Shown here piece after piece: positions 2,385 through 61,177 of a stretch of DNA of 64,000 nt. Location of the stretch: assembly GCA_040767085.1 (NCBI GenBank), contig JAXGPF010000008.1, positions 44,590 through 108,589 on the forward strand, written 5' to 3'. Both the position numbers and the translations under genes were made by a program. Numbering within the stretch: position 1 is the first letter of the stretch; each line of letters starts with the position of its first letter. This DNA comes from Kiritimatiellia bacterium. GTDB taxonomy: Bacteria > Verrucomicrobiota > Kiritimatiellia > JAAZAB01. The notes under the pieces were generated by a model. That model was not told the origin of the DNA and did not search any database. It saw only the letters and a list, made by a program, of their open reading frames with translations.

Positions 2385-4337
2385 TCAGCCGCCGGACGTT
2401 GCGCCGACCTGTAAATTCAGCCTGCCGCCGGCCAGGATGATGGCGCGTTCGCGTTCGTTCAGGCGGCATTGCACCGGGATGGCGATGCCGCGGGTGATAT
2501 TCTGCAAGGTCAGCGCGCCGCGTTCCAACCCGGCCCGCAAACCGGCCAGTTCCAGGACGTCGCCTTGTTCCACGCGGGCGTAATCGCCGGGATCCTGGAA
2601 TATCAGCGGCAGGATGCCGCAGTTGATCAGGTTGGCGGTATGAATGCGCTCAAAACTCCTGGCCGCCACCGCCCGCACGCCCAGAAACATCGGGCAGAGC
2701 GCGGCATGCTCGCGGCTGGAACCCTGGCCGTAAGACTCGCCGGCAATGATGAAGGAGACCCGCCCCTGCGCCCGGGCCGCTTTGCACCGCGCGGGAAAAC
2801 CTGGATCCACCGGATGAAAAACATATTCGGCGTATTTGGGCACATTGGAGCGGAGCTTGAGAAAGGCGCCGGCCGGCATGATGTGGTCGGTGGTGACCTT
2901 GTCCCCGACCTTGATTTGCGCAATGCCGGCCAGAGTGTCGGGCGGCGGCACATTGCGCGGCAGCGCGCCGATGTTCGGGCCGCGGACGAGCGCGACCTGC
3001 GCCCGCGCGGCCGGCAGCGGTGGTTCGACGATCATCGCATCGTCCGTAATGAAGTGCGCCGGCTGTTTAATGAAGGGGTAGCGGCCGGCCCCCCAGCCGC
3101 GCGGATCGGTGAATTCGCCCGCGACGGCAGCCGCGGCGGCGGTTTCCACGGAAGCCAGGTACACGGCGGCATCCCGCGTGCCGCTGCGGCCGAGGAAGTT
3201 GCGGTTGGAAGTGCGGATGGAAACGGCGTTGGAACGCGGGGCATGGGAATTGCCGATGCAAAAACCGCAGGCGCTTTCCGCGATCCGCGCGCCGGCGGCG
3301 ATCAGGTCGGCCAGGGCGCCGTTGCGGGCAATCATCTCCAGCACCTGCCGCGAACCCGGCGCCACCACCAGGCTGATGCCAGGGGCGATTTTTTTACCGG
3401 CCAGCATGCGGGCCGCCACCATCAGGTCCTTGTAGGATGAATTCGTGCAGGAACCGATGCACACCTGCTGCACGGCCAGCCCGGCGAGTTCCCGCACCGT
3501 TTTTACATTGTCCGGGTTATGCGGCGCGGCGGCCAGCGGTTCGATCTGCGACAAATCAATGTCAATCACCCGGTCGTAGCGGGCGCCCGGGTCGGCCTTG
3601 AGCGGCGTGTAATCCGCCAGCCGGCCCTGCGCCTGTAAAAAACGGCGGGTGACATTGTCGGCCGGGAAAACCGAGGCCGTGACGCCCAGTTCGGCGCCCA
3701 TGTTGGCGATGGTGGCGCGTTCCGGCACGCTCAAGGTGCGCACTCCCGGCCCGCCGTATTCCAGGGCCGTGCCGACGTTGCCCTTGGAAGTCAGCATTTG
3801 CAGCAAACGCAGAATGACATCCTTGGCCGAGACCCAGGGCGGCAGTCGGCCGGCCAGGCGGACCAGGCAGACCCGGGGACATTGCAAAGCGAAGGGTTGG
3901 CCGGCCATGGCCAGCGCCACGTCCAATCCGCCGGCGCCGATGGCCAGCATGCCGATCCCGCCGCCGGTGGGGGTATGGGAATCCGAGCCCAGCAGCGTCC
4001 GGCCGGGCTTGCCGAACCGCTCCAGGTGCACCTGGTGGCAGATGCCGTTGCCCGCACGGGAAAATTTCACGCCGAACCTGGCGGCCGCTGACTGCAGGTA
4101 GGCGTGGTCGTCGGCGTTTTCGAAACCGGACTGCACGGTGTTATGGTCCACATAACTGACCGAAAGTTCGGTTTTGACCGATCCGGCGCCCATCGCCTCG
4201 TATTGCAGGAAGGCCATGGTGCCGGTAGCATCCTGGGTCAAGGTCTGGTCAATGCGAATCTCAATATCCGCGCCCGGCGCCCAGGCGCCGCTGGCCAGGT
4301 GGCTGGTGATGAGTTTCTCGACGACGCCCCGCGGCAT
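2385..4337 (-). CDS. acn: Aconitate hydratase (short Aquifex/archaeal-type aconitase)
   Basis: DQTLTQDATGT, GNGICHQ, GSDSHT, IGSCTNSS, ACGFCIG, TSNRNFLGR, TTDHIMPA, YGQGSSREHAA. Start placed at ATG 4337, preceded by AGGAGCAGGA; the ORF track extends to 4439. Confidence 0.92.
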   Translation of the reverse strand: MPRGVVEKLITSHLASGAWAPGADIEIRIDQTLTQDATGTMAFLQYEAMGAGSVKTELSVSYVDHNTVQSGFENADDHAYLQSAAARFGVKFSRAGNGICHQVHLERFGKPGRTLLGSDSHTPTGGGIGMLAIGAGGLDVALAMAGQPFALQCPRVCLVRLAGRLPPWVSAKDVILRLLQMLTSKGNVGTALEYGGPGVRTLSVPERATIANMGAELGVTASVFPADNVTRRFLQAQGRLADYTPLKADPGARYDRVIDIDLSQIEPLAAAPHNPDNVKTVRELAGLAVQQVCIGSCTNSSYKDLMVAARMLAGKKIAPGISLVVAPGSRQVLEMIARNGALADLIAAGARIAESACGFCIGNSHAPRSNAVSIRTSNRNFLGRSGTRDAAVYLASVETAAAAAVAGEFTDPRGWGAGRYPFIKQPAHFITDDAMIVEPPLPAARAQVALVRGPNIGALPRNVPPPDTLAGIAQIKVGDKVTTDHIMPAGAFLKLRSNVPKYAEYVFHPVDPGFPARCKAARAQGRVSFIIAGESYGQGSSREHAALCPMFLGVRAVAARSFERIHTANLINCGILPLIFQDPGDYARVEQGDVLELAGLRAGLERGALTLQNITRGIAIPVQCRLNERERAIILAGGRLNLQVGATSGG

Positions 4338-4404
4338 ATATCCTGCTCCTTCCTGGCGCTTGATCAATGTCCAAAACCATCCAACTAGTTTGTCATATGG
4401 CCTT

Positions 4405-4434
4405 TTACGCTTGAGTAAGGTCAACCAAGCGTAA
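4405..4434. promoter_or_regulatory. Putative operator: inverted repeat TTACGCTTG-N12-CAAGCGTAA in the divergent acn / hydrolase promoter region
   Basis: Perfect 9-bp inverted repeat in an AT-rich intergenic region. Confidence 0.4.
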
Positions 4435-4491
4435 TACAATACATCATTCTAAAAATGGCCGGGCCTGTCAAGATTGTTATGGAGTGCGCGC

Positions 4492-5082
4492 ATGCCGTCG
4501 CCGGTGGCACATACCCTGATTGGAATTACGCTGGGCGCGGCCTGCTGCCTGCCGCGCGGCGGCGGCTGGCGCCGGCTGGGCGCCCGGCTGTGGCGCTGGC
4601 GCGGCTTGCTGCTGGTGTGCGCGTTGCTGGCCAATGCCCCGGATATTGACTACCTGTTCGGGTTGGCCGCCGGCGATTTGAACAGCCGGCATCAGTTGGT
4701 CACCCATACCCTGGGCTGGATTGCCGCCGTGGCCCTGGCCTTATGGTGGGCGCAGCGGTATTTCGCGCCCCGCGCGGTGCGGATGTCCGCCGCCTTGATT
4801 TTTCTGCTGCTGGCCAGCCATCTGGCGGCGGATTACCTCGGGCAGGACCTGGCTCCGCCTTTCGGCATCATGGCCTTCTGGCCGCTCTCGGACCGTTTTT
4901 ATCTCTCGCCCTGGCCGTTGTTCCCGGCGCCCGCCAAGCGCGCGCTGGGCGAATTATGGTCGGCGCACAATTTGCGCGTGATGGCGTGGGAATTGGCGCT
5001 GCTCATGCCGGCGCTGCTGGCGGTCATGCTTTACAAGGCCCGCGGCTCCGCGGGGGATCCGCCGGCCGGCCATACTGGTTGA
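4492..5082 (+). CDS. Inner-membrane metal-dependent hydrolase (YdjM-like)
   Basis: MPSPVAH N-terminus, PDID, HQLVTHTLG, SHLAAD and FWP motifs, with hydrophobic helices. Confidence 0.8.
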   Translation: MPSPVAHTLIGITLGAACCLPRGGGWRRLGARLWRWRGLLLVCALLANAPDIDYLFGLAAGDLNSRHQLVTHTLGWIAAVALALWWAQRYFAPRAVRMSAALIFLLLASHLAADYLGQDLAPPFGIMAFWPLSDRFYLSPWPLFPAPAKRALGELWSAHNLRVMAWELALLMPALLAVMLYKARGSAGDPPAGHTG

Positions 5083-49805: not shown

Positions 49806-50918
49806 ATGTCTTTTGAAAGCGGCTCAGTCAGTTTCAGCATGTTTTACGTTCCCGCCCCCCTGCCGGAGACCATCCATCAGCGGTTTGCCAAGGGCGTGCT
49901 CGGTCCGATAGATAAGCTGCGCGAGGAAGAAATTCACGGCTGGGTTGGGCCCCGGCACCTGCTGGATCGCGAGATCAGCGAGATGACGGCCTGGCCCTCC
50001 GGTTTTTTGCGGCTGACGCTCTCCCAGGCGCAACGGGTCATCCCCGCGTCGCTGCTGCGGGCGGAATGCCGCATCGAGGAAATGGCCTGGATGCAGGCCG
50101 AGCACCGCGATTATGTCAACCGCCAGCAGAAAAGTGAAATCAGGCAGCGGGTGGTCGAGCGCCTTTTGCCGCAAATGCCGCCCCAGCTCAAGGGGATTGA
50201 CTTCTGTTACGATCCGCGGGCAAAATTCCTGTATGTCACCGCGCTTTCGGAGAAACAGTTCGACGCTTTCCTGATCAACTTCGGCCTGACCACCGGGGTC
50301 AAACTGATCCAGGTTGATCCGGTATCCGCCGCGTGGCATGAGGCGCATTGCCGGGCCGACCAATGGCCCGCGCTGGGATTTGCCGCCGAACAGTGGGCGG
50401 ATTGCGCCCCCGGGCGCGAATTCTTAATGTGGCTCTGGTTCATGTCGGAGGCCAAAGGCGGCGAAGTGGACTTGGCTGGCGGCGGGAAATTCGCCGTTAT
50501 GGTGGAAGGACCCCTGCTGTTCGATCAGGCGGAGCAGGGTGAGACGGCGATCCGCAAAGGCGAGCCGATGCTGAGCGCCGAAACCCGCGCCGCGCTTCTC
50601 AGCGGCAAAAAGCTGCGCCGGGCCAAGCTGACCCTGGCCCGCGGCGGCGAGGAGTGCTGGACTTGCTCGTTTGACGCCGATGGTTTCATCTTCCGCAACT
50701 TGAAATTGCCCAAGACCGAGGCGATTGACGCCGTGGGCCGCTTTCAGGAGCGGATGGAAATGCTGGACACCTTCCGGGAAGCCTTCCTCGGCCTCTACGG
50801 CACTTTCGCCAAGCTGCGCGACGACCGCGGCCGTTGCCAAGCGCTGGAGTCGGAAATGAAAAAATGGATGTCCGGACGGCCGTCCCGCAAGCTGGCGGAT
50901 GTATCCAGCAGTCAGTGA
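49806..50918 (+). CDS. RdgC-like recombination-associated protein
   Basis: GWVGPRHLLD, RVIPASLL, GREFLMWLWFMSE, VEGPL, ALLSGKKLRRAKL. Family recognition is from memory. Confidence 0.7.
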   Translation: MSFESGSVSFSMFYVPAPLPETIHQRFAKGVLGPIDKLREEEIHGWVGPRHLLDREISEMTAWPSGFLRLTLSQAQRVIPASLLRAECRIEEMAWMQAEHRDYVNRQQKSEIRQRVVERLLPQMPPQLKGIDFCYDPRAKFLYVTALSEKQFDAFLINFGLTTGVKLIQVDPVSAAWHEAHCRADQWPALGFAAEQWADCAPGREFLMWLWFMSEAKGGEVDLAGGGKFAVMVEGPLLFDQAEQGETAIRKGEPMLSAETRAALLSGKKLRRAKLTLARGGEECWTCSFDADGFIFRNLKLPKTEAIDAVGRFQERMEMLDTFREAFLGLYGTFAKLRDDRGRCQALESEMKKWMSGRPSRKLADVSSSQ

Positions 50919-50940
50919 TCAGTGATCGGTGATCAGTGAA
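50913..50940 (+). repeat. Heptamer tandem repeat (CAGTGAT)x4
   Basis: CAGTGAT CAGTGAT CGGTGAT CAGTGAA, overlapping the rdgC-like stop codon. Confidence 0.8.
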
Positions 50941-50962
50941 CCTTGAGTTTTGGTCAACAGCA

Positions 50963-50992
50963 TTGACAGGTACACGCTGCGTCTGATAAAGT
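50963..50992 (+). promoter_or_regulatory. Candidate promoter directed toward the cassette array (Pc-like)
   Basis: TTGACA-N18 with extended -10 TGaTAAAGT. Confidence 0.4.
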
Positions 50993-51260
50993 GCAGTCAG
51001 CTTGACTGTTGGTTTTGGTTCAGTAGCATCCCATAGCAAACCGCTTGATTCTCTCACAAAGCCGCAAAGCCACAAAGAAGACGCGGATAATTTACCACTG
51101 AACCGGAAGGATTGGCCACCCAAAGTTGACTAGATTGACGCATATAGCGGGCATCTTTCCCTTTCCTGTACGTCAATCTGTATTCACAACCCGTTAAATA
51201 TCAACGAAAGAGTTGATGGATTTAACGAAAACGGTGGAAATGTGTCGTGCTATGCATGAC

Positions 51261-51279
51261 GCATAATATTATGTTGGCC
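51261..51279 (+). other. attI-like integron recombination site
   Basis: GCATAAT-N5-GTTGGCC (L box, 5 bp, R box). GTTGGCC is the exact complement of the GGCCAAC that ends the first cassette. Confidence 0.55.
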
Positions 51280-51291
51280 CAGATCGAGGAC

Positions 51292-52164
51292 ATGACAAAA
51301 CGAAAACAGATCACCAAGACCGTCCGATTTGAGGTCTTCAAGCGCGACTCATTTGCCTGTCAGTATTGTGGACGGAAGGCTCCTGAAGTCCTGCTTGTGA
51401 TTGACCACATCGAGCCAGTGGCAAAGGGTGGTACGAACGACATACTGAACCTCATCACCGCCTGCAAAGACTGCAATGCGGGCAAGTCCGATCGCCAGTT
51501 GTCAGACTCCTCGATTCTCGACAAGCAGCGGCAGCAATTGGAGGACTTGCAGGAGCGGAAAGAGCAGATCGAAATGATGTTCCAGTGGCAGAAGGGCCTA
51601 CTTGACCTCGACGACCAGGTCGTTCAGCAGTTGACGGCGTTCTGGTCAGAGCAGGTTCCCGGATATAGCCTGAACGAGACCGGCATCAAGGGTCTCAAAC
51701 GGCTTAAGCGGAAGTTTGAACTTGATGAGATCCTGGCCGCCATGAAGATCGCCGCAGAACAGTACATCGAGTTCAAAGACGGGCAACCGACAAAGGAATC
51801 CGTTGAGGAGGCATGGGGGAAGGTCGGCGGCGTCTGTGCCGTCAGGCGCGAAGAGAAGAAACGTCCCCACATGCAAAAGCTTCGTTACGTGCGGGGTATC
51901 CTCCGCAACAGGCTAAGCTACCTGGACGAAGCACGCGCCCTTCAGTTGCTGGAGGAAGCCTTCGACGCAAGTGCGAGCCTTGAAAATCTGGAGAAGCACG
52001 CGAAGTCGCTACGAACTTGGACCGAATGGCGCAACGACATTGAGGCGTTTATCACCGAGCACGAAGAGAAACCGGAAGATGACGGAGAGGGCCAACAAAC
52101 GGTCCGAGGCTACTCCGAAACCCGCGCCGCAAACGGCGCGTCTTCCGGATCGCCTCAACCGTAG
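51292..52164 (+). CDS. HNH endonuclease (cassette 1)
   Basis: VRFEVFKRDSFACQYCG...IDHIEPVAKGGTND..NLITACKDCNAGKSD plus a helical C-terminal domain; GAGGA RBS before ATG 51292. Confidence 0.9.
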   Translation: MTKRKQITKTVRFEVFKRDSFACQYCGRKAPEVLLVIDHIEPVAKGGTNDILNLITACKDCNAGKSDRQLSDSSILDKQRQQLEDLQERKEQIEMMFQWQKGLLDLDDQVVQQLTAFWSEQVPGYSLNETGIKGLKRLKRKFELDEILAAMKIAAEQYIEFKDGQPTKESVEEAWGKVGGVCAVRREEKKRPHMQKLRYVRGILRNRLSYLDEARALQLLEEAFDASASLENLEKHAKSLRTWTEWRNDIEAFITEHEEKPEDDGEGQQTVRGYSETRAANGASSGSPQP

Positions 52165-52172
52165 CGTTCTGT
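52090..52172 (+). other. attC site 1 (83 bp)
   Basis: R'' GGCCAAC; L''/L' ACGGTCCGAGG / CCTCAACCGT with an extrahelical base; central hairpin CGCGCCG/CGGCGCG; R' GTTCTGT. Confidence 0.75.
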
Positions 52173-52199
52173 TGAAAGAAACATAGATGGGAAGCACAA

Positions 52200-53909
52200 A
52201 TGGACCGTGAACGGATCATCCGCGAACTCGCCAAGTGCCGGCTGAAACCGGATGGACACAGGCGTCAGTACACGATAGCCGGAAAGTTGGGACAGGGAGG
52301 GAATGGCGTCACGTTCGTCGTTCATGTTGGCCGGCGGGAGCTTGTGGCAAAGATATATGTCCCTCCGGACAGCCGGGATCTCGACAATGCCGCCTTCAAG
52401 CGATTCACCCGCGAGATTGAACTCTCCAGTCGGACTCACCATCCCTTTGTCGTCCCGGTTGCGGGAACTGGCAACATCGCGGTGGGCGCTTATACGTTCC
52501 CTTTTTATCTGATGCCCAAAGCGAAGGGCACACTTCGCAGTCTCATCCCCTCAGCGTTCACGCTTGACGGTCTCGGCTTCAGGCTCCGTACCTTTACGCA
52601 AGTCGTAAGCGGAGTCTCCTATCTGCACCACATCGGCATCTTTCACCGGGACTTGAAACCAGAGAATATTCTCCTGTCCGATAACGGCCTTCCGATGGTG
52701 GCCGACCTCGGCATTGCCCACGTTGCGCCCTCTTTCGTCGAATGGAGCAAGCTTACCCTCCCAAAAGACCATTTGATGAACTGGGATTACTACGCACCCG
52801 AACAGAGAGATGGTGACGCTACCAAGGTCGATCATCGCGCCGATATCTATGCCTTGGGCCTAATCATGTATGAACTTATGACTGGCGTTTCCCCGTCACG
52901 CCCAAACCTCCCGGAATTGTACAGCTTTGACGTTCGACTCGCGCGGTTGGATAGCATCTTTGGAAAGATGACGGCCCATTATCCTGAGAAACGCTATCAG
53001 ACTCTTGATGTACTCCAGGACGAGTTGACATGGACACTGATTGCCTTGGGAATTCCAACGGAGGCGCCTTCTTCTGATGAGGCAGACAAACGGAGCCTGG
53101 TCAGGCTACTGCGCAGCACCAATGCCGCTAATCGTGCCCGCGCACAGGAGATTGTTCGGCGCCTAGCAGACAAGGCATTGCCCGAGCTTCACGAGATGAC
53201 CGGCGACACGCGCGTGGACGTTGCCCTATCCGCGTACAAACTTCTTGGAAATCTTGTCCACAAGGAATCATTGCCGTATTTGTTGGCAGGATTGTACCCG
53301 CGACGCTCGGCGCAGAAGCCCAGATTTGTTACTGGCGAGGCAGCTGCAGAGGCCCTGCGCAACTACCCCGTTGAGGACAGACTGGCGACACTTAGGGCGA
53401 TTAAGGACTTGGTTCTCGCCAGACACATCGGCCTCATCATAGAAGGTATTCCGGCACAAGATTCCTACCCACTCGCATCCCGACTGTACGAGTCTAAGCT
53501 GTTCTACGACGACTGGAGTGAGGAATCAGGCCTCGCCTTCTTACTCCGTCTTGACCAGAATGAGGCTTGGCCGCTTGTCGAGCGCAAACTGGCAAGCGGC
53601 TCAACCGTTTACTCCTTTACCGTCTTTCGAGACTTCTTCCCCAATGTGAATTCCGACCGACAGAAGCTCCTTATTGACTACATGCTCAATCGCGATAGCG
53701 ATCTCAGCTCATGGGAGCTTCCCAGGCTTCTGGATGCCATTGCGGCATCTTTCGTCCCCTCGCAATTTGCCTCGGAAGCACTATCACGACTCAAAGATGT
53801 TGCACAGCGGCGAATCCGAAAGTGGGATGAGCGGGAAGCATTTGTTCGCAAAGTGGAGGAGCTAGAGGTGAAAACGATCGCTCCTGCAAAGAGCCCAAAG
53901 AAATCATGA
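52200..53909 (+). CDS. Hanks-type Ser/Thr protein kinase with helical (HEAT-like) C-terminus (cassette 2)
   Basis: LGQGGNG, VAK, HRDLKPENIL, DLG, YYAPEQ, DIYALG. Confidence 0.9.
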   Translation: MDRERIIRELAKCRLKPDGHRRQYTIAGKLGQGGNGVTFVVHVGRRELVAKIYVPPDSRDLDNAAFKRFTREIELSSRTHHPFVVPVAGTGNIAVGAYTFPFYLMPKAKGTLRSLIPSAFTLDGLGFRLRTFTQVVSGVSYLHHIGIFHRDLKPENILLSDNGLPMVADLGIAHVAPSFVEWSKLTLPKDHLMNWDYYAPEQRDGDATKVDHRADIYALGLIMYELMTGVSPSRPNLPELYSFDVRLARLDSIFGKMTAHYPEKRYQTLDVLQDELTWTLIALGIPTEAPSSDEADKRSLVRLLRSTNAANRARAQEIVRRLADKALPELHEMTGDTRVDVALSAYKLLGNLVHKESLPYLLAGLYPRRSAQKPRFVTGEAAAEALRNYPVEDRLATLRAIKDLVLARHIGLIIEGIPAQDSYPLASRLYESKLFYDDWSEESGLAFLLRLDQNEAWPLVERKLASGSTVYSFTVFRDFFPNVNSDRQKLLIDYMLNRDSDLSSWELPRLLDAIAASFVPSQFASEALSRLKDVAQRRIRKWDEREAFVRKVEELEVKTIAPAKSPKKS

Positions 53910-53980
53910 GCAGAACAATCGGCTTCACTCTTACGGTTGCCCCGGGGCGGATCAACCGAAGGTGAGCCGTAACGTTCGGC
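53910..53980 (+). other. attC site 2 (71 bp)
   Basis: R'' GCAGAAC (complements the cassette start GTTCTG); GCTTCAC / GTGAGC with extrahelical T; CTTACGGTTG / CAACCGAAG; R' GTTCGGC. Confidence 0.9.
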
Positions 53981-53989
53981 AGTAGAGAG

Positions 53990-54637
53990 ATGAAGGCAAT
54001 AATCCATAGGGAACTATTGCTCCGTCCGCGTACTGGATACGCAATGGATGCCGTCCAAGCCATTGCCGACTTTTGTGCGCAGTCAGAAGACTACACCTAT
54101 CTGCGAAAAGAAACGGACGAGTACTGCAGGCACATCAATGCAGATGCCTGCATGATTGCGGATCGATCCTCCAAAGTCTTCCCCGCGCTAGCCTTTGCGT
54201 CGTCTGACGGTGCTGTGCTCCAGGTTGTGAACATTGTTCCCGGCAGCGTTTCCGAAATCGGAATAGCGGACTACAACATGATACTTGACCGCTTCACCAA
54301 GGCATTCGCAATATTTTGCGGGGCAAAACGGGTTAAGATGACTATAACACAGACATCGGACTCACTGACCCTCGAGTCGGCTATTCCGGGGAGAAAGACC
54401 CGCGACTTCTTCCAGCGTTTCCTCAATCTGCATCCGACGAGTTACCACCCATCTGACATCGAGCGGCTTGATGTCTTCATCTGCGCTGCTTCAAGATACC
54501 ACTCTGGCGGCTTCAACACACATCGGCTCCGCAGGTATTTGATGGAGGTTTTGGAATGGAAAGAAAAGGACGCATCCTGGTGTTGTGACCGAATTGATGC
54601 CGGACTGGACATTCTGAAAGTAAACAGGAAATTCTAG
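53990..54637 (+). CDS. Hypothetical protein (cassette 3)
   Basis: 215-aa ORF exactly filling the space between GTTCGGC (53974) and GCCGAAC (54637); HPSDIERL motif. Confidence 0.8.
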   Translation: MKAIIHRELLLRPRTGYAMDAVQAIADFCAQSEDYTYLRKETDEYCRHINADACMIADRSSKVFPALAFASSDGAVLQVVNIVPGSVSEIGIADYNMILDRFTKAFAIFCGAKRVKMTITQTSDSLTLESAIPGRKTRDFFQRFLNLHPTSYHPSDIERLDVFICAASRYHSGGFNTHRLRRYLMEVLEWKEKDASWCCDRIDAGLDILKVNRKF

Positions 54638-54713
54638 CCGAACAAACGTAAGCGTCCGGTGGAGCGCCCCCTATGCAAACACTCCGGACGTGGCAAACTG
54701 CTTTGGGTTAAAT
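54637..54713 (+). other. attC site 3 (77 bp, imperfect)
   Basis: R'' GCCGAAC is the exact complement of the cassette start GTTCGGC; central CGTCCGG / CCGGACG; AAGC / GCTT; R' GTTAAAT. The right arm has extra bases. Confidence 0.6.
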
Positions 54714-54719
54714 TATGTA

Positions 54720-55103
54720 GGCGTGGGGTCGGACCGCGGCAAGTTGTGGGGGCGTGGGGGTCGGACCGCGGCAAGTTGTTGTTTGATAGGTGGATAGCCC
54801 GATATTATGGTGAAAAAACGCCTTAAAGGTGTTTTTTGGCGGGCTTTTTGTGTTATAAGCACCTGTAGGCCGGGAAGGATTTGTAAATGAAATGGCCAAA
54901 ACAATTATGAACCGGAGGAAATTGGCGATAGAGCAAGAGCCGATTGCTGGTGAATCGGAAGCGTATATTCTAAGGGAGCAGCCCATTGGCTATGGTAATG
55001 CTTAATGTTTATTTTGGTAATGAAAAAACGGCGCTAAGGGCCTTTAAAGTATCTGAAATATCTTTAAAGCATTGGTTTTTAGCATATTGCCGAGGTCCGA
55101 CCC
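54720..55103 (+). mobile_element. Internally deleted (non-autonomous) copy of the Y1 element, with a duplicated left end
   Basis: GGGTCGGACCGCGGCAA at 54726 and 54758; left-end sequence to about 54862 joined to the 3' end of the transposase (GTAGGCCGGGAAGG, cf. 57028); ends in TTGCCGAGGTCCGACCC (55087-55103). Confidence 0.88.
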
Positions 55104-55149
55104 TGTGGTGCGCACGGGAACCGTGTCCAGCGAAACCAGGAGAAACGCG

Positions 55150-55449
55150 ATGAATATCGAAATCATGCGAGCTTTCTTTGGGTGGTGTACCGTCATCAAC
55201 GGTGCGTTTCTGCTTCTAGCATTCTTGTTGTGCGCGAAGGCGAGCGACTGGGTGTACAGGATGCACAGCAGGTGGTTCCCCATCAAAAGGGAGGCATTAA
55301 CATTGACGATGTATTGCTTCATCGGAGGGATGAAGATTATCTTTATTATGCTAAACCTTGTGCCATATTTGGCGCCATATTTGGCGCTTGTCATTCTGGC
55401 GGGGGCGTGGGGTCGGACCGCGGCAAGATGTTGTTTGATAGGTGGATAG
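55150..55449 (+). CDS. DUF6868-like small membrane protein (cassette); natural 3' end replaced by a Y1 left end
   Basis: MNIEIMRAFFGWCTVINGAFLL..HSRWF..YCFIGGMKIIFIMLNLVPY; in-frame 12-bp tandem duplication GCCATATTTGGC (55362-55385). Confidence 0.7.
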   Translation: MNIEIMRAFFGWCTVINGAFLLLAFLLCAKASDWVYRMHSRWFPIKREALTLTMYCFIGGMKIIFIMLNLVPYLAPYLALVILAGAWGRTAARCCLIGG

Positions 55450-55566
55450 CCCGATATTATGGTAAAAAAACGCCCTTAAAGGTGTTTTTTGGCAGGCTTT
55501 TTGTGTTATAAGCACTTATATTCGTATCATGCCGAGAAAAAATCGCTATTTCATGTGTGGTCATTT
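55404..55566 (+). mobile_element. Orphan left end of the Y1 element plus the first 13 transposase codons
   Basis: GGCGTGGGGTCGGACCGCGGCAAG...ATGCCGAGAAAAAATCGCTATTTCATGTGTGGTCATTTA (MPRKNRYFMCGHL). Confidence 0.85.
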
Positions 55567-55624
55567 AGCTTGGGGAAACTCTTAACCAGATATTCCAGCG
55601 CATGGCCGGTCCGCGCTGCGTGCG

Positions 55625-55701
55625 GCCCAACCATGCACTGGACCGTCAATGGTCCGCACACACGCAGTGTGCGGCGGCCCGCCGCCAGCGCCCCGTTCGG
55701 C
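55625..55701 (+). other. attC site 4 (77 bp)
   Basis: R'' GCCCAAC; GCACTGG / CCAGCGC; central CCGCACAC / GTGTGCGG; R' GTTCGGC. Confidence 0.7.
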
Positions 55702-55726
55702 CAGAAGGCCAGAAGGGAGAGGGGAG

Positions 55727-56113
55727 ATGAGAAGGATAGTCGTGGCAATGCTGGTGTTTGCGGTGGGCACGATGATCGCAGTGTCACACCCCGGTGGGCT
55801 TGATGCAAACGGCGGCCACTACAACCGAAAGACGGGCGAATATCACTATCACCGACAACCTGCGGCAAACCCGCAGCCGCCTGCGCGATTAACTCCGTCT
55901 GCATCGCAGTCCGTCTCGACAAACAAGACGCAGACGATAGAGAAGTCGTTTTGGCTCAACACGTCCTCAGGCGTCAGGCACAACAAAGGATGCCGTTGGT
56001 TCGGGAAGACGCAAGGCGGTCGCTACTGCGGGCCAAATGAGGGGCGAGCGTGCGGGCAATGTGGTCGGCGTGGGGGTCGGACCGCGGCAAGTTGTTGTTT
56101 GATAGTAGGATAG
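55727..56113 (+). CDS. Secreted YHYH-domain protein with C-terminal Cys-rich (Ada-like) domain (cassette); stop codon replaced by a Y1 left end
   Basis: Signal peptide; HPGGLDANGGHYNRKTGEYHYH; WLNTSSGVRHNKGCRWF...CGPNEGRACGQCG. Confidence 0.78.
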   Translation: MRRIVVAMLVFAVGTMIAVSHPGGLDANGGHYNRKTGEYHYHRQPAANPQPPARLTPSASQSVSTNKTQTIEKSFWLNTSSGVRHNKGCRWFGKTQGGRYCGPNEGRACGQCGRRGGRTAASCCLIVG

Positions 56114-56302
56114 CCAGATATTATGGTAAAAATACGCCCTTAAAGGTGTTTTTTGGCCGGCTTTTTGTGTTATAAGCACTTATATTCGTATCATGCCAAG
56201 AAAAAACCGGTATTTCATGTGTGGTCATTTATGGCACTTGACCCATAGGTGTCACAACCGTGATTTTTTGCTGAAATTCGGTAAGGACCGTGATGCTTAC
56301 CG
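56067..56302 (+). mobile_element. Orphan left end of the Y1 element plus the first ~37 transposase codons
   Basis: Near-identical to the start of the full copy; MPRKNRYFMCGHLWHLTHRCHNRDFLLKFGKDRDAYR, then abuts the next left end. Confidence 0.88.
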
Positions 56303-57266
56303 GGCGTGGGGCCGGACCGCGGCAAGATGTTATATGACAGGTAGATAGCCCGATATTATAATTAAAAAACACTCTTAAAGATGTTTTTTGGCGGGTTTTT
56401 TGTGTTATAAATACTTATATTCGTATCATGCCAAGAAAAAACCGATATTTCGTGTGTGGTCATTTATGGCACTTGACCCATAGGTGTCACAACCGTGATT
56501 TTTTGCTGAAATTCGGTAAGGACCGTGATGCTTACCGCAACTTGCTCCGAGCGCGGCTACAAGGTTCTGGGGTTGATTTATACGGTTATTGCCTTACTGG
56601 CAACCATGTTCATCTCTTGGTGCATAGCGATGCCGGCCTGGATATACCTGCTCTAATAAAGTCAGTGGCCGGTGAATTTGCCCAAGCGTATAATCGGCGC
56701 AAAAGGCGCACGGGCGCTTTTTGGGGAGACCGGTACCATGCTACGCTGGTTGATAGCGGAAAATATTTGTGGCGTTGTCTGCAATATATTGATCTGAACA
56801 TGGTGCGTGCCGGGCGTGTGACGCATCCTGCGGATTGGCCATGGTGCGGATATCATGAATTGGTGGGGGAACGCAAGCGTTACTGTTTAATAAACAGGGA
56901 TGGATTACGAGCGGCGTTAAATTTTTCTTCAATTGAGAGTTTTAGCGATGAATATCGGGCAGGCATTGTTGCGCGGTTGGCGGAGCAAAACCTGCTGCGG
57001 GAGCCCTGTTGGACAGAGGTCTTGGCCGTAGGCCGGGAAGGATTTGTAAATGAAATGGCCAAAACAATTATGAACCGGCGGAAATTGGCGATAGAGCAAG
57101 AGCCGATTGCTGGCGAATCGGAAGCGTATATTCTAAGGGAGCAGTCCATTGGCTATGGGAATGCTTAATGCTTGTTTTGGTAATGAAAAAACGGCGCTAA
57201 GGGCCTTTAAAGCATCTGAAATATCTTTAAAGCATTGATTTTTAGCATATTGCCGAGGTCCGACCC
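56303..57266 (+). mobile_element. Full-length Y1 (HUH) transposase element with 17-bp inverted ends
   Basis: Left end GGGCCGGACCGCGGCAA (56309-25); right end TTGCCGAGGTCCGACCC (57250-66); markedly AT-rich. Confidence 0.85.
56428..57168 (+). CDS. REP-associated-type tyrosine transposase (Y1_Tnp, IS200-like HUH)
   Basis: HLTHRCHNR, YCLTGNHVHLLV (HUH), FWGDRY, YIDLNMVRAG (catalytic Tyr), DWPWCGY. Confidence 0.92.
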   Translation: MPRKNRYFVCGHLWHLTHRCHNRDFLLKFGKDRDAYRNLLRARLQGSGVDLYGYCLTGNHVHLLVHSDAGLDIPALIKSVAGEFAQAYNRRKRRTGAFWGDRYHATLVDSGKYLWRCLQYIDLNMVRAGRVTHPADWPWCGYHELVGERKRYCLINRDGLRAALNFSSIESFSDEYRAGIVARLAEQNLLREPCWTEVLAVGREGFVNEMAKTIMNRRKLAIEQEPIAGESEAYILREQSIGYGNA

Positions 57267-57366
57267 TGTGGCCGTGTCGTCCGACGGCATGACGATCCAC
57301 TGTCTCAACGGTTTGCCGTGTCGCTGTGCGAGTGGGCGGAGACACAGGCAGGAGAGAAAAACGCGA

Positions 57367-57395
57367 TTGATCCCCGTCCGTTGCTCGTGTAATCT
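57367..57395 (+). promoter_or_regulatory. Putative own promoter of the TA cassette
   Basis: TTGATC-N17-TAATCT followed by the AAGGGAG RBS. Confidence 0.45.
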
Positions 57396-57421
57396 ATGCT
57401 TAGCAAAAGGGAGATAATGTT

Positions 57422-57610
57422 ATGCCAACCGTCATGAAGAAAGAATCAGCACACAAAATCATCGACCGCATGCCTCAGCAGGCGACATGGGATGACCTTA
57501 TACACGAAATTTACGTTCACGAGGCGATCGAACGAGGGCTAGCCGATAGCAAGGCCGGAAGGACCAAAGAAGTTAAAGAAGTCCGTGCCAAATACGGCTT
57601 GCCGATATGA
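57422..57610 (+). CDS. Type II antitoxin (small, ParD-like)
   Basis: KESAHKIIDRMPQQATWDDLIHEIYVHEAIERGLADSKAGRT; ATGA overlap with the toxin. Confidence 0.85.
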   Translation: MPTVMKKESAHKIIDRMPQQATWDDLIHEIYVHEAIERGLADSKAGRTKEVKEVRAKYGLPI

Positions 57611-57949
57611 GAGTTCATTGGACAGACACGGCTCAATCCCATCGGCGCCATCCACGCATATATTGCCCAAGACTCCGCCGAGTACGCCATCTACACGATA
57701 GATCGCCTGACGCGACGCTCTCAGCAAATTGCCGACTTTCCTCTTTCGGGTCGTCGTGTGCCGGAATATGAAATGGACCAAATTCGAGAGGTAATCGAAG
57801 CTCATTACCGGATCATCTATTACATTAAATCAGACCAGATTGACGTTTTGGCTATCATTCATGAGGCAAGAAATATCCTGGCCGATTGCCAAGAAAACAA
57901 CATAGCCGAACCAGATTTTCCAGCGGATGGCGACCAGCGCCACCGCTGA
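57607..57949 (+). pseudogene. RelE/ParE family toxin, frameshifted after about codon 12
   Basis: MRVHWTDTAQSH, then a frame change to GAIHAYIAQDS...FPLSGRRVPE...IREVIEAHYRIIY...IDVLAIIH. Consistent with a 2-nt loss near 57643. Confidence 0.85.
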
Positions 57950-57963
57950 AAATTATGTTCGGC
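57905..57963 (+). other. attC site 5 (59 bp)
   Basis: GCCGAAC-CAGAT-TTTCCAGCGG-ATGGCGACCAGCGCCA-CCGCTGAAAA-TTAT-GTTCGGC; fully self-complementary apart from an extrahelical C. Confidence 0.92.
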
Positions 57964-57970
57964 GATTATT

Positions 57971-60900
57971 TTAGTCTCCAACCTTGCCCGTTCCCCGCCC
58001 ATAGATCAGGTTGTAAACCACCGGGATCACCAGCAAGGTGAAGATGGTGGAGACGAATAAGCCGAAGATGATGGACCAGGCCAGGCCGCTGAAAATCGGA
58101 TCGAGGGTGATCGGCCAGGCGCCCAGCAGCGTGGTGCCGGCGGTCAGGAAAATCGGGCGGAACCGCGTGGCGCCGGATTCCAGGATGGCCTCGCGCAACG
58201 AACGCCCCGCCGCCGTGTTGACGCGGATGAAGTCAATCAGGATGATGGCGTTGCGCTGGACGATGCCGCCCAGGGCGATCATGCCGATCATGGCGGTGGC
58301 GGTGAAAAACACGGGAGTGTCGAAACCGCCCACCGGGCGGTTCACCAGCAGGTTCAACAGCCAGAAACCCGGCATGATGCCGATCAGCGTCAGCGGGATG
58401 GACATCATGATGACCAGCGGCAGCAGGTAGGAGCTGGTTTCGTAAACCAGCAGGACGTAAATGGCCAGGAGCGCCACGGCGAAGGCGATGCCCAGGTCGC
58501 GGAAGACATCCACCGTGATCTTCCATTCCCCTTCACCGGCCCAGTCCGCCCTGAGACCCGCCGGCAGCGGATTGGCTTTCAGCCATTGCTGCATGGCCAG
58601 CACTGCCTCCGCCGGGCCGCGGCCCGCCATCTCGGCCGTGACGTACACCACCCGCTCCTGGTTTTTATGCATGATGGACTTGTCCTCCACCTGCTCCTCG
58701 AACCGGCCCAGTTCGCCCAGTTGGACAAATTGGCCCTGGCGGCCCTTGATGGGCAGGGTGGCCAGCAGGGCGGTGTCGGAACGCTTGTCGCGGGGCAGCC
58801 GCAGCACGAGCGGCAGTTCGTTCTGTTCGGACGGGGTATGAACCGTGCCGACCATCTGGCCGTCCAGCGCCAGCCGCAGCACCTGGGCGGCGTCCGCCGC
58901 GGCGATGCCGCTGCGTCCGGCGAGATCGCGGTCAACATGGAAAAACCATTTCTGCTGGTTGGTTTCGACCGAGTCGTCCACTTCGACGACTCCCGGCTCC
59001 TGTCGCAACCGCGCGGCCACCTGGCGGGCGCCGGCGATCAATTCGTCGTATTGCTGGTGCGGCTGGCCGTAGATTTCCGCCACCACGGTCGCGAGCACCG
59101 GCGGGCCGGGCGGAGCCTCCACGAGCTTGACCTGCGCGCCATGCCGTTCAGCGATGGCGGCGATGTCATTGCGGATGCGCAGGATGATATCGTGGCTGGA
59201 TTGCGCCCGGCGCTGGCGCGGCAGCAAGTTGACGCGGATATCCCCGAGGTTGGGCGCTTGGCGCAGGTAATAGTGCCGGACCAGTCCGTTGAAGTCCATC
59301 GGCGAAGGCGCGCCCAGGGTCGTGGTGAAGTCCACCACTTCCGGTACGCCGCGCAGGTAATCCTCTGCGTCGCGCGCCAGGGCGTCGGTCATTTCCAGCG
59401 GGGCGGATTCGGGCAGGTCCAGCACGAGCTGGAATTCGTTTTTATTGTCGAAGGGCAGCATTTTCAGGGGCACGCGGCCGGTGGCGGCCAGCAGCAGCGC
59501 GCCGGCGAACAGCGCGGCCATCACCGCCAGCAGCAGCCAGGCGGCCCGGCGCGAATCCACGAACGGGGCGGCCAGCCGGCTATAAACCGCGTAGGTGCGG
59601 GTGGTCCGCACATCGTAAGGCTTGGCATTGTCCGCCGGGGCGCGCAGCAGCTTGTTGGCCAGCCATGGCGCCAGGGCGAACGCCACCAGCATGGAACTGA
59701 TCATCGTCAGCGGCACGTTGAGGGCCATCGGGCGCATGTAGGGGCCCATCATGCCGCTGATGAAAAACATCGGGATGAACGAGACGATGATCGCCAGCGT
59801 GGCCAGCACGATGGGCGGCATCACTTCTTCCATGGCCAGTTGCACGGCCTCCTCGCGGCGGTGGCGTTTCATGGCGAAAAAGCGGTAAATGTTTTCCACG
59901 CTGACGATGGGGTTGTCCACCAGCAAGCCCAACGCCAGGATCAGCGCGAACAGCGTCACGCGGTTGATCGTGTAGCCGAACAGGAAGTTGCACAGGAGCG
60001 TCAGGGCGTAGGTGATCGGGATCGCCAGCCCGACGATCACGCCGACCCGCCAACTCATGGTCAGGGCGATCAGGGCGACGACGGTGAGCATCCCCAGGCC
60101 GAGGTTGAGCACCAGGTCGTTGACTTTTTCGTTCGCGGTGGCGCCGTAGTCCCGCGTAATGCGGACGGCGACATTGTCCGGGATGGTCCGGCCCTGCAGC
60201 GCCCGCAGGGCGCGTTCCAGTTCCCGCGCCACTTGCACGGCATTGCTGCCCTTCTTCTTGGCCACGGCGATGCTCACCGCGGCCCGGGGCGCGGCGCCGT
60301 CCGGCGCCGCGAACGCCGGGTCGGCCGGCCCATGGTGGAAGCGGGTCAGGGTGCGCGGTTCCGCCGGGCCGTCGGCGATCCGCGCGACGTCCCGCAGGTA
60401 AACCGGGCGGCCGGCATGCAGCCCCACCATCAGGTTGGCGACTTCGCCGGCATCCCGCAGAAACGGCCCGGCCGCGACCGTCGCCACGGCGTTGCCCTGC
60501 TCGAACGAGCCGGCCTGGAGCTGCAGGTTGCCCGCCTGCAGCGCGCCGGCGATTTCGCGGGGGCAGAGGCCGTGCGCCGCGAGTTGTTCCGGATCGAGGT
60601 AGACGGTCAACTGGCGTTTTTCGCCGCCGTGAATGGTGATGGCGGCGCTGTCGGGCACGTGCTGGAGTTTGCCGACGACTTCCTCGGCGATTCGGTAGAG
60701 CGCGTGGGTGTCGCAACTCCGGCTGTGCAGGGTGGCGGTCAGAATCGGCACGTCGTCAACTTCCACCGGCTTGACCACCCAGCCGGCGATGCCGGGGGTG
60801 GCTTTATCCACATTCTGGAAAATCTTGTTGTACAGCTTGATCAGGCTGGCTTCGCGGTCCTCGCCCACGTAAAACCGCACGGTCACCACCGCCATTCCCG

Positions 60901-61177
60901 GGCGCGAGGTGGAATAGACGTATTCCACGCCGTCAATCTGGTACAGCAGGCGTTCCAGGCGCGACGACACCATTTTTTCCACTTCCGCCGCCGATCCGCC
61001 CGGATACATCACCAGCACGTCGGCCAGCGGGACGACGATTTGCGGCTCCTCTTCGCGGGGGGTCACCATCAGCGCGATGGCGCCGGCCAGCAGGCTGACC
61101 AGGATCAGCAGCACGGCGAAATTGCCGGTGAGGAAGGCCCGCACCAGCCCGCCCATTACAGAGTGTTTGCCGTCCAT
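57971..61177 (-). CDS. RND efflux permease (AcrB/CusA family)
   Basis: REEEPQIVVP, YGATANEKV, NRVTLFALILALGLLVDNPIVSVENI, GMMGPYMRPMA, RFRPIFLTAGTT. Confidence 0.95.
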   Translation of the reverse strand: MDGKHSVMGGLVRAFLTGNFAVLLILVSLLAGAIALMVTPREEEPQIVVPLADVLVMYPGGSAAEVEKMVSSRLERLLYQIDGVEYVYSTSRPGMAVVTVRFYVGEDREASLIKLYNKIFQNVDKATPGIAGWVVKPVEVDDVPILTATLHSRSCDTHALYRIAEEVVGKLQHVPDSAAITIHGGEKRQLTVYLDPEQLAAHGLCPREIAGALQAGNLQLQAGSFEQGNAVATVAAGPFLRDAGEVANLMVGLHAGRPVYLRDVARIADGPAEPRTLTRFHHGPADPAFAAPDGAAPRAAVSIAVAKKKGSNAVQVARELERALRALQGRTIPDNVAVRITRDYGATANEKVNDLVLNLGLGMLTVVALIALTMSWRVGVIVGLAIPITYALTLLCNFLFGYTINRVTLFALILALGLLVDNPIVSVENIYRFFAMKRHRREEAVQLAMEEVMPPIVLATLAIIVSFIPMFFISGMMGPYMRPMALNVPLTMISSMLVAFALAPWLANKLLRAPADNAKPYDVRTTRTYAVYSRLAAPFVDSRRAAWLLLAVMAALFAGALLLAATGRVPLKMLPFDNKNEFQLVLDLPESAPLEMTDALARDAEDYLRGVPEVVDFTTTLGAPSPMDFNGLVRHYYLRQAPNLGDIRVNLLPRQRRAQSSHDIILRIRNDIAAIAERHGAQVKLVEAPPGPPVLATVVAEIYGQPHQQYDELIAGARQVAARLRQEPGVVEVDDSVETNQQKWFFHVDRDLAGRSGIAAADAAQVLRLALDGQMVGTVHTPSEQNELPLVLRLPRDKRSDTALLATLPIKGRQGQFVQLGELGRFEEQVEDKSIMHKNQERVVYVTAEMAGRGPAEAVLAMQQWLKANPLPAGLRADWAGEGEWKITVDVFRDLGIAFAVALLAIYVLLVYETSSYLLPLVIMMSIPLTLIGIMPGFWLLNLLVNRPVGGFDTPVFFTATAMIGMIALGGIVQRNAIILIDFIRVNTAAGRSLREAILESGATRFRPIFLTAGTTLLGAWPITLDPIFSGLAWSIIFGLFVSTIFTLLVIPVVYNLIYGRGTGKVGD

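Follow-up and report, generated by a model that had tools for sequence, protein, structure and literature searches.

Organization of the locus

The window analysed is a stretch of 64,000 nt of a Kiritimatiellia genome, which measures 4.08 Mb, is assembled in 28 contigs and is estimated to be 95% complete. The 6.7-kb segment from 51261 to 57963 of the window, located between an rdgC-like gene and a convergent acrB-like gene, is an integron cassette array in which attI and most of the attC sites have been kept. The features of the region are the following.

51013..51121, no strand assigned: copy of a dispersed repeat of ~90-110 nt, found in ~25 copies over the contigs of the genome
51195..51279, plus: attI; core CATAATATTAT followed by GTTGG at 51262-51277, crossover GTT at 51273, where the first cassette begins
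51292..52164, plus: cassette 1 gene, HNH endonuclease-domain protein of 290 aa (Pfam HNH, 8e-15)
52090..52172, plus: attC1 (R2 32.6 bits, E 6e-7; R1 20.4 bits, E ~1e-3)
52200..53909, plus: cassette 2 gene, Ser/Thr protein kinase of 569 aa with a HEAT-like C-terminal half (Pfam Pkinase, 3e-28; weak HEAT_2)
53910..53980, plus: attC2 (R2 43.8 bits, E 3e-10; R1 26.9 bits)
53990..54637, plus: cassette 3 gene, 215-aa protein of an uncharacterised family (243 representative clusters)
54637..54713, plus: attC3 remnant; R'' box GCCGAAC intact, the rest non-canonical, weak hairpin
54720..55108, plus: MITE-like, internally deleted Y1 copy (repeat families D2-D5; blastn)
55150..55449, plus: gene for a DUF6868 small membrane protein (Pfam DUF6868, 8e-23, residues 1-75)
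55403..55567, plus: solo Y1 left end with the first 39 nt of the transposase gene (repeat families, blastn)
55625..55701, plus: attC4; 89% identical to the attC at L012:1848-1928 in the intI-linked array of the same-genus genome G002
55727..56113, plus: gene for a YHYH-domain protein (NCBIfam YHYH_alt, 3e-12)
56067..56301, plus: Y1 left end and 5'-terminal 108 nt of the transposase gene, truncated by the following copy
56302..57271, plus: complete Y1 transposon (left end 56302-56427, transposase 56428-57168, right end 57169-57271)
57422..57949, plus: toxin-antitoxin pair (RelB/ParD-like antitoxin 57422-57610, ParE toxin 57607-57949)
57905..57963, plus: attC5, the last site of the array (R1 40.1 bits, E 1e-9; R2 39.2 bits, E 7e-9)

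The genes of the array all reside on the plus strand, and the cassettes have a GC content of 0.52-0.56, lower than that of the genome (0.61) and of the flanks (0.62-0.66), as an earlier note on this DNA had described. The tight fit of genes to cassettes noticed there is seen in the first three cassettes. The 3' end of the HNH gene overlaps attC1, the kinase stop codon and the start of attC2 are one base apart, and attC5 ends 7 nt from the stop codon of the acrB-like gene. The dispersed repeat at 51013..51121 sits between the rdgC-like gene and attI, the place where an integrase gene is expected.

attI and cassette boundaries

The attI core CATAATATTATGTTGG spans 51262-51277 and overlaps the junction GTTGGCC (51273-51279). 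In relatives that carry an integrase, homologous sites lie where the first cassette begins, on the side of intI. On the cassette strand, the core is found with 15 of 16 identical residues in G002 (L012 6457-6472), ~610 nt upstream of intI, and with 14 of 16 in G026, a member of another family (L010 904-919), again upstream of intI. What had been called an attI-like site shares its 16-nt core with sites adjacent to intI in both genomes. Homology with a site adjoining an intI remnant on contig C23 of the same genome extends over ~65 nt upstream of the core, and the two attI sites exhibit ~75-80% identity.

GTTGGCC at the junction pairs exactly with GGCCAAC, the R'' box of attC1; likewise, in G002 the attI junction GTTGGGA is the complement of the R'' box of the first attC, TCCCAAC. 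The three pairs listed in the earlier note, GTTGGCC/GGCCAAC, GTTCTG/CAGAAC and GTTCGGC/GCCGAAC, are present, with 7/7, 6/7 and 7/7 complementary positions, and the R'' box of the last cassette also matches its own first bases at 7/7. Complementarity extends to non-consensus bases. In the arrays of relatives, R'' boxes and cassette starts are complementary at 7/7 in 16 of 22 consecutive pairs. The signature of circular integration is visible directly in the sequence; the chemistry would be that of IntI, as known from established integron biology.

Transposon copies lie between attC3 and attC4, and there the R''/R' chain breaks down (3/7). No attC belonging to the DUF6868 gene or the YHYH gene could be recognised, and joining in silico the flanks of the transposon copies, in search of a split attC for either gene, gave nothing convincing. 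Transposon insertions have scrambled the limits of the cassettes in the right half, and the third attC is degenerate.

attC sites

Since no Rfam family matched the interval 50.5-58.5 kb, attC covariance models were built. R1, the smaller, and R2 were trained solely on attC sites adjoining integron-integrase genes in related genomes; they are home-made, lineage-specific models with a shortened calibration, distinct from the official attC model of IntegronFinder. A common hairpin can be derived from the seven intI-adjacent attC sites of relatives, and 11 of its 21 base pairs show compensatory changes. R2 searched both strands of the window, 128 kb in all, with filters off. Its top three matches, attC2, attC5 and attC1, are all on the plus strand, and the next best match anywhere scores 14.6 bits; the same three sites are recovered by R1. 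A covariance model scoring none of the sites was named in the earlier note as part of a refuting outcome; here three sites score high.

The R2 score of attC1 is inflated, because the model includes an attC of the G003 integron which is 75% identical to attC1, with compensatory stem changes; R1 does not contain this relative. attC5 is strand-specific, the opposite strand scoring 12-15 bits. A long, branched centre keeps the scores of attC4 low with both models (11-12 bits). The attC3 remnant is detected by neither R1 nor R2. Its interior belongs to a small repeat family, found also on contig C28, and the site is interrupted at 54659, in a sister assembly, by a group II intron which the present genome lacks. 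Thus, of the five attC-like palindromes reported earlier, three are recognized by the models and attC4 by homology, while the degenerate element at 54637-54713 fails both models.

[quoted passage not shown] 2016, PMC4889954; Néron et al. 2022, PMC9024848). The term was applied here to two or more attC sites found by covariance model, at most 4 kb apart and on one strand, with no intI nearby. The R2 sites at 52090, 53910 and 57905 are all on the plus strand, and gaps measure 1.7-2.3 kb when attC4 is counted. The designation CALIN given earlier to the locus is sustained by at least three attC sites validated by model and one validated by homology, on a single strand and within 6 kb.

Copies of a Y1 transposon

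The region 54720-57271, on which the earlier note was silent, consists largely of nested copies of a Y1 transposon. The complete element is bounded by a common inverted repeat of ~21 nt (I3-I11), and its transposase is a Y1 family member (Pfam Y1_Tnp, 2e-11; 44.5 bits vs a cut-off of 23). The match to the NCBIfam REP-associated tyrosine transposase reaches 69 bits, below the cut-off of 80, and the protein is therefore RAYT-like rather than a confirmed RAYT. The MITE-like copy at 54720..55108 is made up of a partial left-end duplicate, a left end, the 3'-terminal 141 nt of the transposase gene and a right end. Left ends starting at 55403 and 56067 have replaced the 3' ends of the DUF6868 and YHYH genes, respectively. 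In the present genome the element resides at three loci only. Specialisation in cassette arrays finds no support at the level of the Y1 family, as an attC lies within 1.5 kb of just 2 of the 29 loci with homologues in the class. The Y1 transposase encoded in the carB-acrB gap of G002 is only 31% identical, and is therefore a different element.

Cassette genes

The HNH protein matches over its full length phrog_16986 (4e-81), a phage family of unknown function. The best PADLOC match of the kinase is PD-T4-6 (3e-36), which covers residues 21-233 of the kinase domain only, and generic PknB is comparable (1e-32; also PDB PknB). No match was obtained for the C-terminal 270 residues, and matches in 400 genomes of the class concern the kinase domain, with no full-length homologue. 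The 215-aa protein has no Pfam, NCBIfam or PADLOC match, and fold and sequence searches returned no PDB or BFVD match, though the AlphaFold pLDDT is 96; a distant homologue in G345, from another family, is encoded by a cassette exactly flanked by two attC sites. The YHYH protein starts with a hydrophobic, signal-peptide-like segment, as judged by eye. ParE is recognized on the downstream frame (Pfam ParE_toxin, 7e-10), its gene being split into two reading frames by a frameshift near 57636-57641; the antitoxin gives a weak RelB_ParD match. Exact-protein look-ups of the antitoxin, the transposase and three start variants of the HNH protein found nothing.

The array had been viewed as defence-oriented. 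Evidence for this is weak, as the PD-T4-6 match is restricted to one domain, the HNH protein belongs to a phage family of unknown function and ParE carries a frameshift; for the remaining three genes no defence match was obtained. As a rather unlikely possibility, the kinase-HEAT cassette might encode an anti-phage kinase of a new single-gene type.

The integrase gene

In agreement with the earlier description of the array as integrase-less, no intI was found in the 64-kb window by tblastn with the IntI proteins of G002 and G003 as queries, and a profile search of the 4.08 Mb found no TIGR02249 match above cut-off. The end of the rdgC-like gene and the first cassette are 354 nt apart, with no intI remnant between them (tblastn), and the locus is thus not a complete integron. 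Loss of the integrase in place is a presumption, against which counts the lack of any intI trace between the rdgC-like gene and attI. The sole IntI trace in the genome is a 79-aa C-terminal remnant with a frameshifted tail at C23:307113-307398, which scores 102 bits as integron integrase vs 76 as Xer and is 308 nt from an attI-like site. IntI above the TIGR02249 cut-off was found in 16 of 41 relatives, two of them of the same genus, and the distribution indicates that IntI is native to the lineage. In relatives intI is often at contig ends, because cassette arrays break assemblies. Elsewhere in the present genome are at least 8 more attC clusters and, at C22:456373-457074, another intact attI, accompanied by a single cassette.

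The carB-acrB gap of G002, the counterpart of the gap that houses the array, measures 2.5 kb and contains unrelated DNA with no attC. The rdgC-like gene is absent from the genus. The search for an empty site by synteny failed, given that the G002 gap is unrelated and other same-genus contigs break there.

History of the array

The features described make it very probable that the locus represents a chromosomal integron of Kiritimatiellia type, reduced to its recombination platform and cassette array by loss of the integrase gene. By its sequence, the array is a decaying CALIN with attI still attached, a kind of element already well known. Circular cassettes, each made of a gene and an attC, would have been inserted one at a time in attI, between G and TT of the crossover triplet, by the IntI tyrosine recombinase, which would account for the complementarity of each R'' box to the start of its own cassette. 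With no intact intI in the genome, the array would be frozen and decaying, as the degenerate attC, the repeated insertion of the Y1 (IS200-like) element in the right half and the frameshifted ParE suggest. Cassettes could still be excised or reshuffled by IntI provided in trans, for example by an incoming element. Since both intI and the Pc promoter are gone, cassettes would be expressed by read-through or from internal promoters.

It is unlikely that an integrase gene never resided at the locus, attI and cassettes having moved in by rearrangement or transposition, or the cassettes having been inserted at a secondary site by IntI acting in trans. A gap of just 354 nt devoid of intI remnants and partly occupied by the dispersed repeat, the paralogous attI next to the intI remnant on C23, and Y1 transposons both in the array and in the G002 carB-acrB gap fit such a history, and secondary-site insertion of cassettes by IntI is documented (bioRxiv 10.1101/2022.09.11.507474). 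However, the left boundary is a bona fide attI core, which is not created by secondary-site (attG) insertion, the divergence of the attI copies does not fit a recent split of one platform, and the array as a whole is not bracketed by transposon ends.

A split but active integron, in which a functional IntI encoded elsewhere, either within the ~5% missing from the assembly or on a plasmid or phage left out of the bin, serves in trans this array and other attC clusters, is very unlikely. At this level of completeness and fragmentation a functional intI may have escaped assembly; in relatives the gene is frequently at contig ends, the genome has the additional attC clusters and the intact attI on C22, and mobilisation of CALINs in trans has been reported (PMC12444791, PMC4889954). 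Against this, the 4.08 Mb contain no intI above cut-off and, as IntI-like sequence, the truncated and frameshifted remnant only, and degenerate attC3, transposon pile-up and frameshifted ParE fit inactivity.

Chance palindromes or transcription terminators between unrelated island genes are effectively refuted: hairpins are numerous in GC-rich genomes, the sites are at gene ends as terminators are, and attC3 and attC4 score poorly, but three sites reach 33-44 bits vs 14.6 for the next best and are strand-specific, sequence homologues reside inside integrase-linked arrays, R'' boxes complement cassette starts at non-consensus bases too, and the attI core is conserved across families.

An integron that has lost its integrase thus remains the preferred reading of the locus. 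A wider arrangement, quite unlikely, would be a Kiritimatiellia "distributed integron", in which orphan attI platforms are maintained and served in trans whenever IntI arrives by horizontal transfer. The genome holds two intact orphan attI sites with cassettes, here and at C22:456373-457074, and a third, degenerate attI by the intI remnant. Were this arrangement real, attI as well as attC would persist and spread uncoupled from the integrase.

Significance

With the integrase in 16 of 41 sampled relatives, integrons appear as a regular feature of the Kiritimatiellia, a little-studied class of the PVC group, and both the lineage-specific attC model and the attI core sequence can be used to annotate Kiritimatiellia genomes. 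The locus provides a clean example of the decay of a chromosomal integron, by probable integrase loss, attC erosion, transposon pile-up and toxin frameshift, and leaves the understanding of the integron mechanism unchanged. Cassette genes are open to functional testing, including that for the 215-aa protein, predicted to fold confidently and with no detectable structural relatives.

Comparison with known integrons

Mobile integrons of classes 1-3 have in common with the array attI, attC sites with R'', L'', L' and R' boxes, and crossover between G and TT. In contrast, the array has no integrase, no Tn402 or Tn7 context and no resistance genes, and its attI is unrelated to attI1-3.

As in published CALINs (PMC4889954, PMC9024848), two or more co-oriented attC sites are found with no intI nearby, an arrangement read as a degraded integron. 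Size is similar, ~5 sites vs a published average of 5-6, and so is the cargo, mostly of unknown function and free of antibiotic-resistance genes. The array differs in that it keeps attI, recognisable by homology to relatives, whereas attI annotation in IntegronFinder is limited to classes 1-3. The host differs too, being a member of the Kiritimatiellia (PVC group); a literature search found no paper on integrons in this class.

Chromosomal integrons and CALINs of Xanthomonas (PMC12444791) similarly feature an integrase decayed in some lineages and kept in relatives, and stable arrays at fixed loci. In Xanthomonas, however, an intI pseudogene usually stays beside ilvD, whereas here intI is wholly gone from the locus, which is not conserved even within the genus, the G002 DNA being unrelated.

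The CALIN of Halorhodospira halochloris (Sonbol & Siam 2021, PMC7923331) includes group II introns, an IS200/605 element and toxin-antitoxin cassettes. There, one IS605 adjoins the array; here, a single-gene RAYT-like Y1 element with inverted terminal repeats has left five left and two right ends nested inside the array, and the intron is absent from the present genome. The two loci share a toxin-antitoxin cassette and the association of attC sites with a Y1/HUH transposon and, in the sister assembly, with a group II intron inserted in attC, elements which use single-stranded DNA or hairpins being clustered together in both.

The low-GC island

The island occupies positions 50919-57970 of the window. 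Its parts have a GC content of 0.42-0.59, a short attC-containing piece excepted, against 0.61 in the genome and 0.62-0.66 in the flanking carB and acrB-like genes. Every island gene is on the + strand; the earlier note had described co-oriented genes of lower GC content. The products are an HNH-domain protein (cassette 1), a Ser/Thr kinase with a HEAT-like tail (cassette 2), a 215-aa protein without family match (cassette 3), a DUF6868 membrane protein, a YHYH-domain protein, a Y1 (IS200-like) transposase and, in the last cassette, a RelB/ParD-like antitoxin and a ParE toxin. Read-through of the toxin gene requires a +1 shift near 57636-57641, where the frame is broken; the cause is either a genuine mutation that inactivates the gene or an error of the assembly. 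The upstream antitoxin gene is intact.

Features of the island and its borders
49806-50918, RdgC-domain gene, left border
51262-51277, attI core
52090-52172, + strand, attC1
53910-53980, + strand, attC2
53990-54637, + strand, gene for the 215-aa protein
54637-54713, attC3
54720-55108, Y1 transposon copy with internal deletion
55403-55567, solo Y1 left end with short transposase stub
55625-55701, attC4
56067-56301, solo Y1 left end with short transposase stub
56302-57271, complete Y1 copy (left end, 246-aa transposase, right end)
57607-57949, + strand, ParE toxin gene
57905-57963, + strand, attC5
57971-61177, AcrB-family gene, convergent, right border

attC sites

Rfam lacks an attC family and gave no match in the array region. 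The integron-integrase model TIGR02249 scores above its cut-off in 16 of 41 relatives, same-genus genomes G002 and G003 among them; integrons are thus native to this group of Kiritimatiellia, and independent reference sites were at hand. These were collected on the cassette side of intI with a simple scanner for R''/R' boxes and a hairpin. Seven short sites align as a hairpin, with compensatory changes in 11 of 21 pairs, and were used to build a first covariance model, R1. In the relatives' loci R1 found 38 sites, nearly all on the strand predicted by intI orientation, including a regular array of eight in the relative G022. A second model, R2, was built from the 38 sites. Both models are free of window sequence, and all 64 kb were scanned on both strands with filters off.

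The three best R2 hits, all on the + strand, are attC2 (43.8 bits, E 3e-10), attC5 (39.2 bits, 7e-9) and attC1 (32.6 bits, 6e-7); the next-best hit anywhere in the window reaches 14.6 bits. R1 gives the same top three (attC5, 40.1 bits; attC2, 26.9; attC1, 20.4). The attC5 match is orientation-specific, since it scores 39 bits on the + strand and 12-15 on the other. The R2 score of attC1 is helped by a G003 site in the R2 set that is 75% identical to it and differs by compensatory stem changes, but attC1 is still found by R1, which lacks that site. With the models attC4 scores 11-12 bits only, owing to a long, branched centre; along its full length it shares 89% identity with an attC of the G002 array physically linked to intI. 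The earlier note had counted five attC-like palindromes and would have regarded the array as refuted had the attC covariance model scored none of them and had they failed to recombine. The models do score sites: three are recovered by R1 and R2 and a fourth by homology; attC3 is detected by neither model.

Cassette boundaries

When a circular cassette is inserted by IntI, the R'' box of its attC should be complementary to the first bases of the cassette, which correspond to the R' box of the preceding site. Among 22 consecutive pairs in integrase-linked arrays of relatives the rule holds at 7/7 in 16, and most of the others are model hits with termini placed one or two bases out of register. 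In the array described here the agreement is 7/7 for cassette 1 with the attI junction (GTTGGCC/GGCCAAC), 6/7 for cassette 2, and 7/7 for cassette 3 and the last cassette, bearing out the complementarity noticed earlier in the first three; attC1 R'' matches its own R' box at 3/7 only. The chain is broken at attC4 alone (3/7), in a stretch interrupted by transposon copies. The boxes of cassettes 1 and 2 contain non-consensus bases that co-vary, and the signature is therefore not a mere repeat of the lineage consensus GCCGAAC/GTTCGGC. The array would have been assembled by IntI in the past.

attI and the missing integrase

The left-junction core, CATAATATTAT followed by GTTGG, is also found upstream of intI, on the cassette strand, in two relatives. 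The G002 copy matches at 15/16, and the GTTGGGA that comes after it is perfectly complementary to the R'' box of the first attC (TCCCAAC); G026, which belongs to another family of the class, has a 14/16 match. The window's own genome carries a second intact core of G002 type at C22:456373 (GTTGGATAATATTAT followed by GTTCGGC). One cassette with a single ORF comes after it, and its attC lies 640 nt downstream, the whole spanning C22:456373-457074; a search of this contig gave no integrase. A degenerate copy at C23:306777 is homologous to the window site over about 65 nt upstream of its core. It is separated by 308 nt from a C-terminal IntI remnant (C23:307113-307398); copy and remnant together span C23:306777-307398 (locus L001, 1165-1786). 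The remnant, 79 aa and 59% identical to G002 IntI, continues in another frame, scores 102 bits as integron integrase versus 76 as Xer, and has no attC within 1.5 kb. From these recurrences the attI-like site of the earlier note is a real attI homologue, and the sole integrase trace of the genome is a frameshifted pseudogene on another contig. In this genome (4.08 Mb, 28 contigs, 95% complete) nothing scores above the TIGR02249 cut-off, and tblastn with G002 and G003 IntI proteins found no match in the window.

[quoted passage not shown] The array has both properties, which supports its classification as a CALIN, as the earlier note had proposed; it would now be immobile, unless IntI were supplied in trans. 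At least eight further attC clusters were found in the genome, six or seven sites lying at C22:115.5-119.0 kb and four on C18, so the genome holds several integrase-less arrays.

Further attC clusters (2-7 model-positive sites each)
C22:115519-119037
C22:126427-127217
C18:10215-11890
C3:219545-221022
C2:220178-220965
C23:157807-158564
C11:13669-13895

From the rdgC-like gene to the first cassette there are 354 nt, which include, at 51013-51121, a dispersed repeat of about 100 nt, present in about 25 copies on most contigs (consensus ...TTCAGTAGCATCCCATAGAAAACCGCTT.ATTCTCTCACAAAGCCGCAAAGCCACAAAGAAGATGCGGATAATTTACCACGGAACC...) and without match in Rfam.

Locus history

The window is homologous to G002 as far as the carB start (49516), and again from within the acrB 3' end (57996) onwards. 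The 2.5 kb of G002 DNA in this gap is unrelated, lacks an attC and encodes another Y1 transposase, 31% identical to that of the window. The rdgC-like gene is absent from all four same-genus genomes, with relatives (40-44% identical) in other families only, and may be part of the variable region despite its native-looking GC content. On these grounds the carB-acrB gap is a variable hotspot. Either intI may have been deleted in place, or a block of attI plus cassettes may have moved in.

Cassette cargo

Integron cassettes have been reported to encode phage defence (bioRxiv 10.1101/2024.07.02.601719), which makes the defence-oriented array of the earlier note a reasonable idea; in the window such a role would rest on domain-level hints. 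The HNH protein matches the phage protein family phrog_16986, of unknown function, over its full length (4e-81). The kinase aligns with the PADLOC PD-T4-6 and MADS6 models over the generic kinase domain only, about as strongly as with PknB; among 400 genomes of the class none carries a full-length relative. The family of the 215-aa protein is uncharacterised and has 243 representative clusters; N81, Y95, N96, H153, D156, D161, W190, R201 and G205, among others, are nearly invariant in it. Its predicted fold (pLDDT 96, pTM 0.85) has no significant structural match in PDB or BFVD, and the protein no Pfam family. In a genome of another family, a distant homologue forms a cassette that two attC sites delimit exactly.

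Decay of the right half

The region 54720-57271 is mostly Y1 (IS200/RAYT-like) transposon, the full element measuring 970 nt with inverted termini of about 21 nt. The left tip forms short tandem duplications in the array, and the DUF6868 and YHYH genes have each lost their 3' end to a solo left end; no attC was found for either gene, even after in silico joining of the transposon flanks. Elsewhere in the genome the element occurs in two places only (C23:155654-156097, C18:19-143). Of 401 genomes of the class, 49 have its protein family, mostly in 1-2 copies per genome, and the family adjoins attC in just 2 of 29 loci; the element is therefore not regarded as array-specific.

attC3 has an exact R'' box and an interior that belongs to a small repeat family present also on contig C28. 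The sequence of about 70 nt at 54646-54716 has two related inverted copies there (134495-134566, 134712-134742). A contig of a sister assembly (Logan SRR13306812_126221; L050), 100% identical to the window over 51745-54661, carries a group II intron at 2915-4709 (73 bits for Rfam RF02005; domains for RT and maturase). The intron starts at window position 54659, inside attC3, and is oriented like the cassettes; the window's own genome lacks it. attC3 is regarded as a degenerate or remodelled site.

The work adds a lineage-specific attC model and an attI core. The array resembles the CALIN of Halorhodospira, for which co-clustering of attC sites with IS200/605 elements, group II introns and toxin-antitoxin cassettes was described earlier (PMC7923331).
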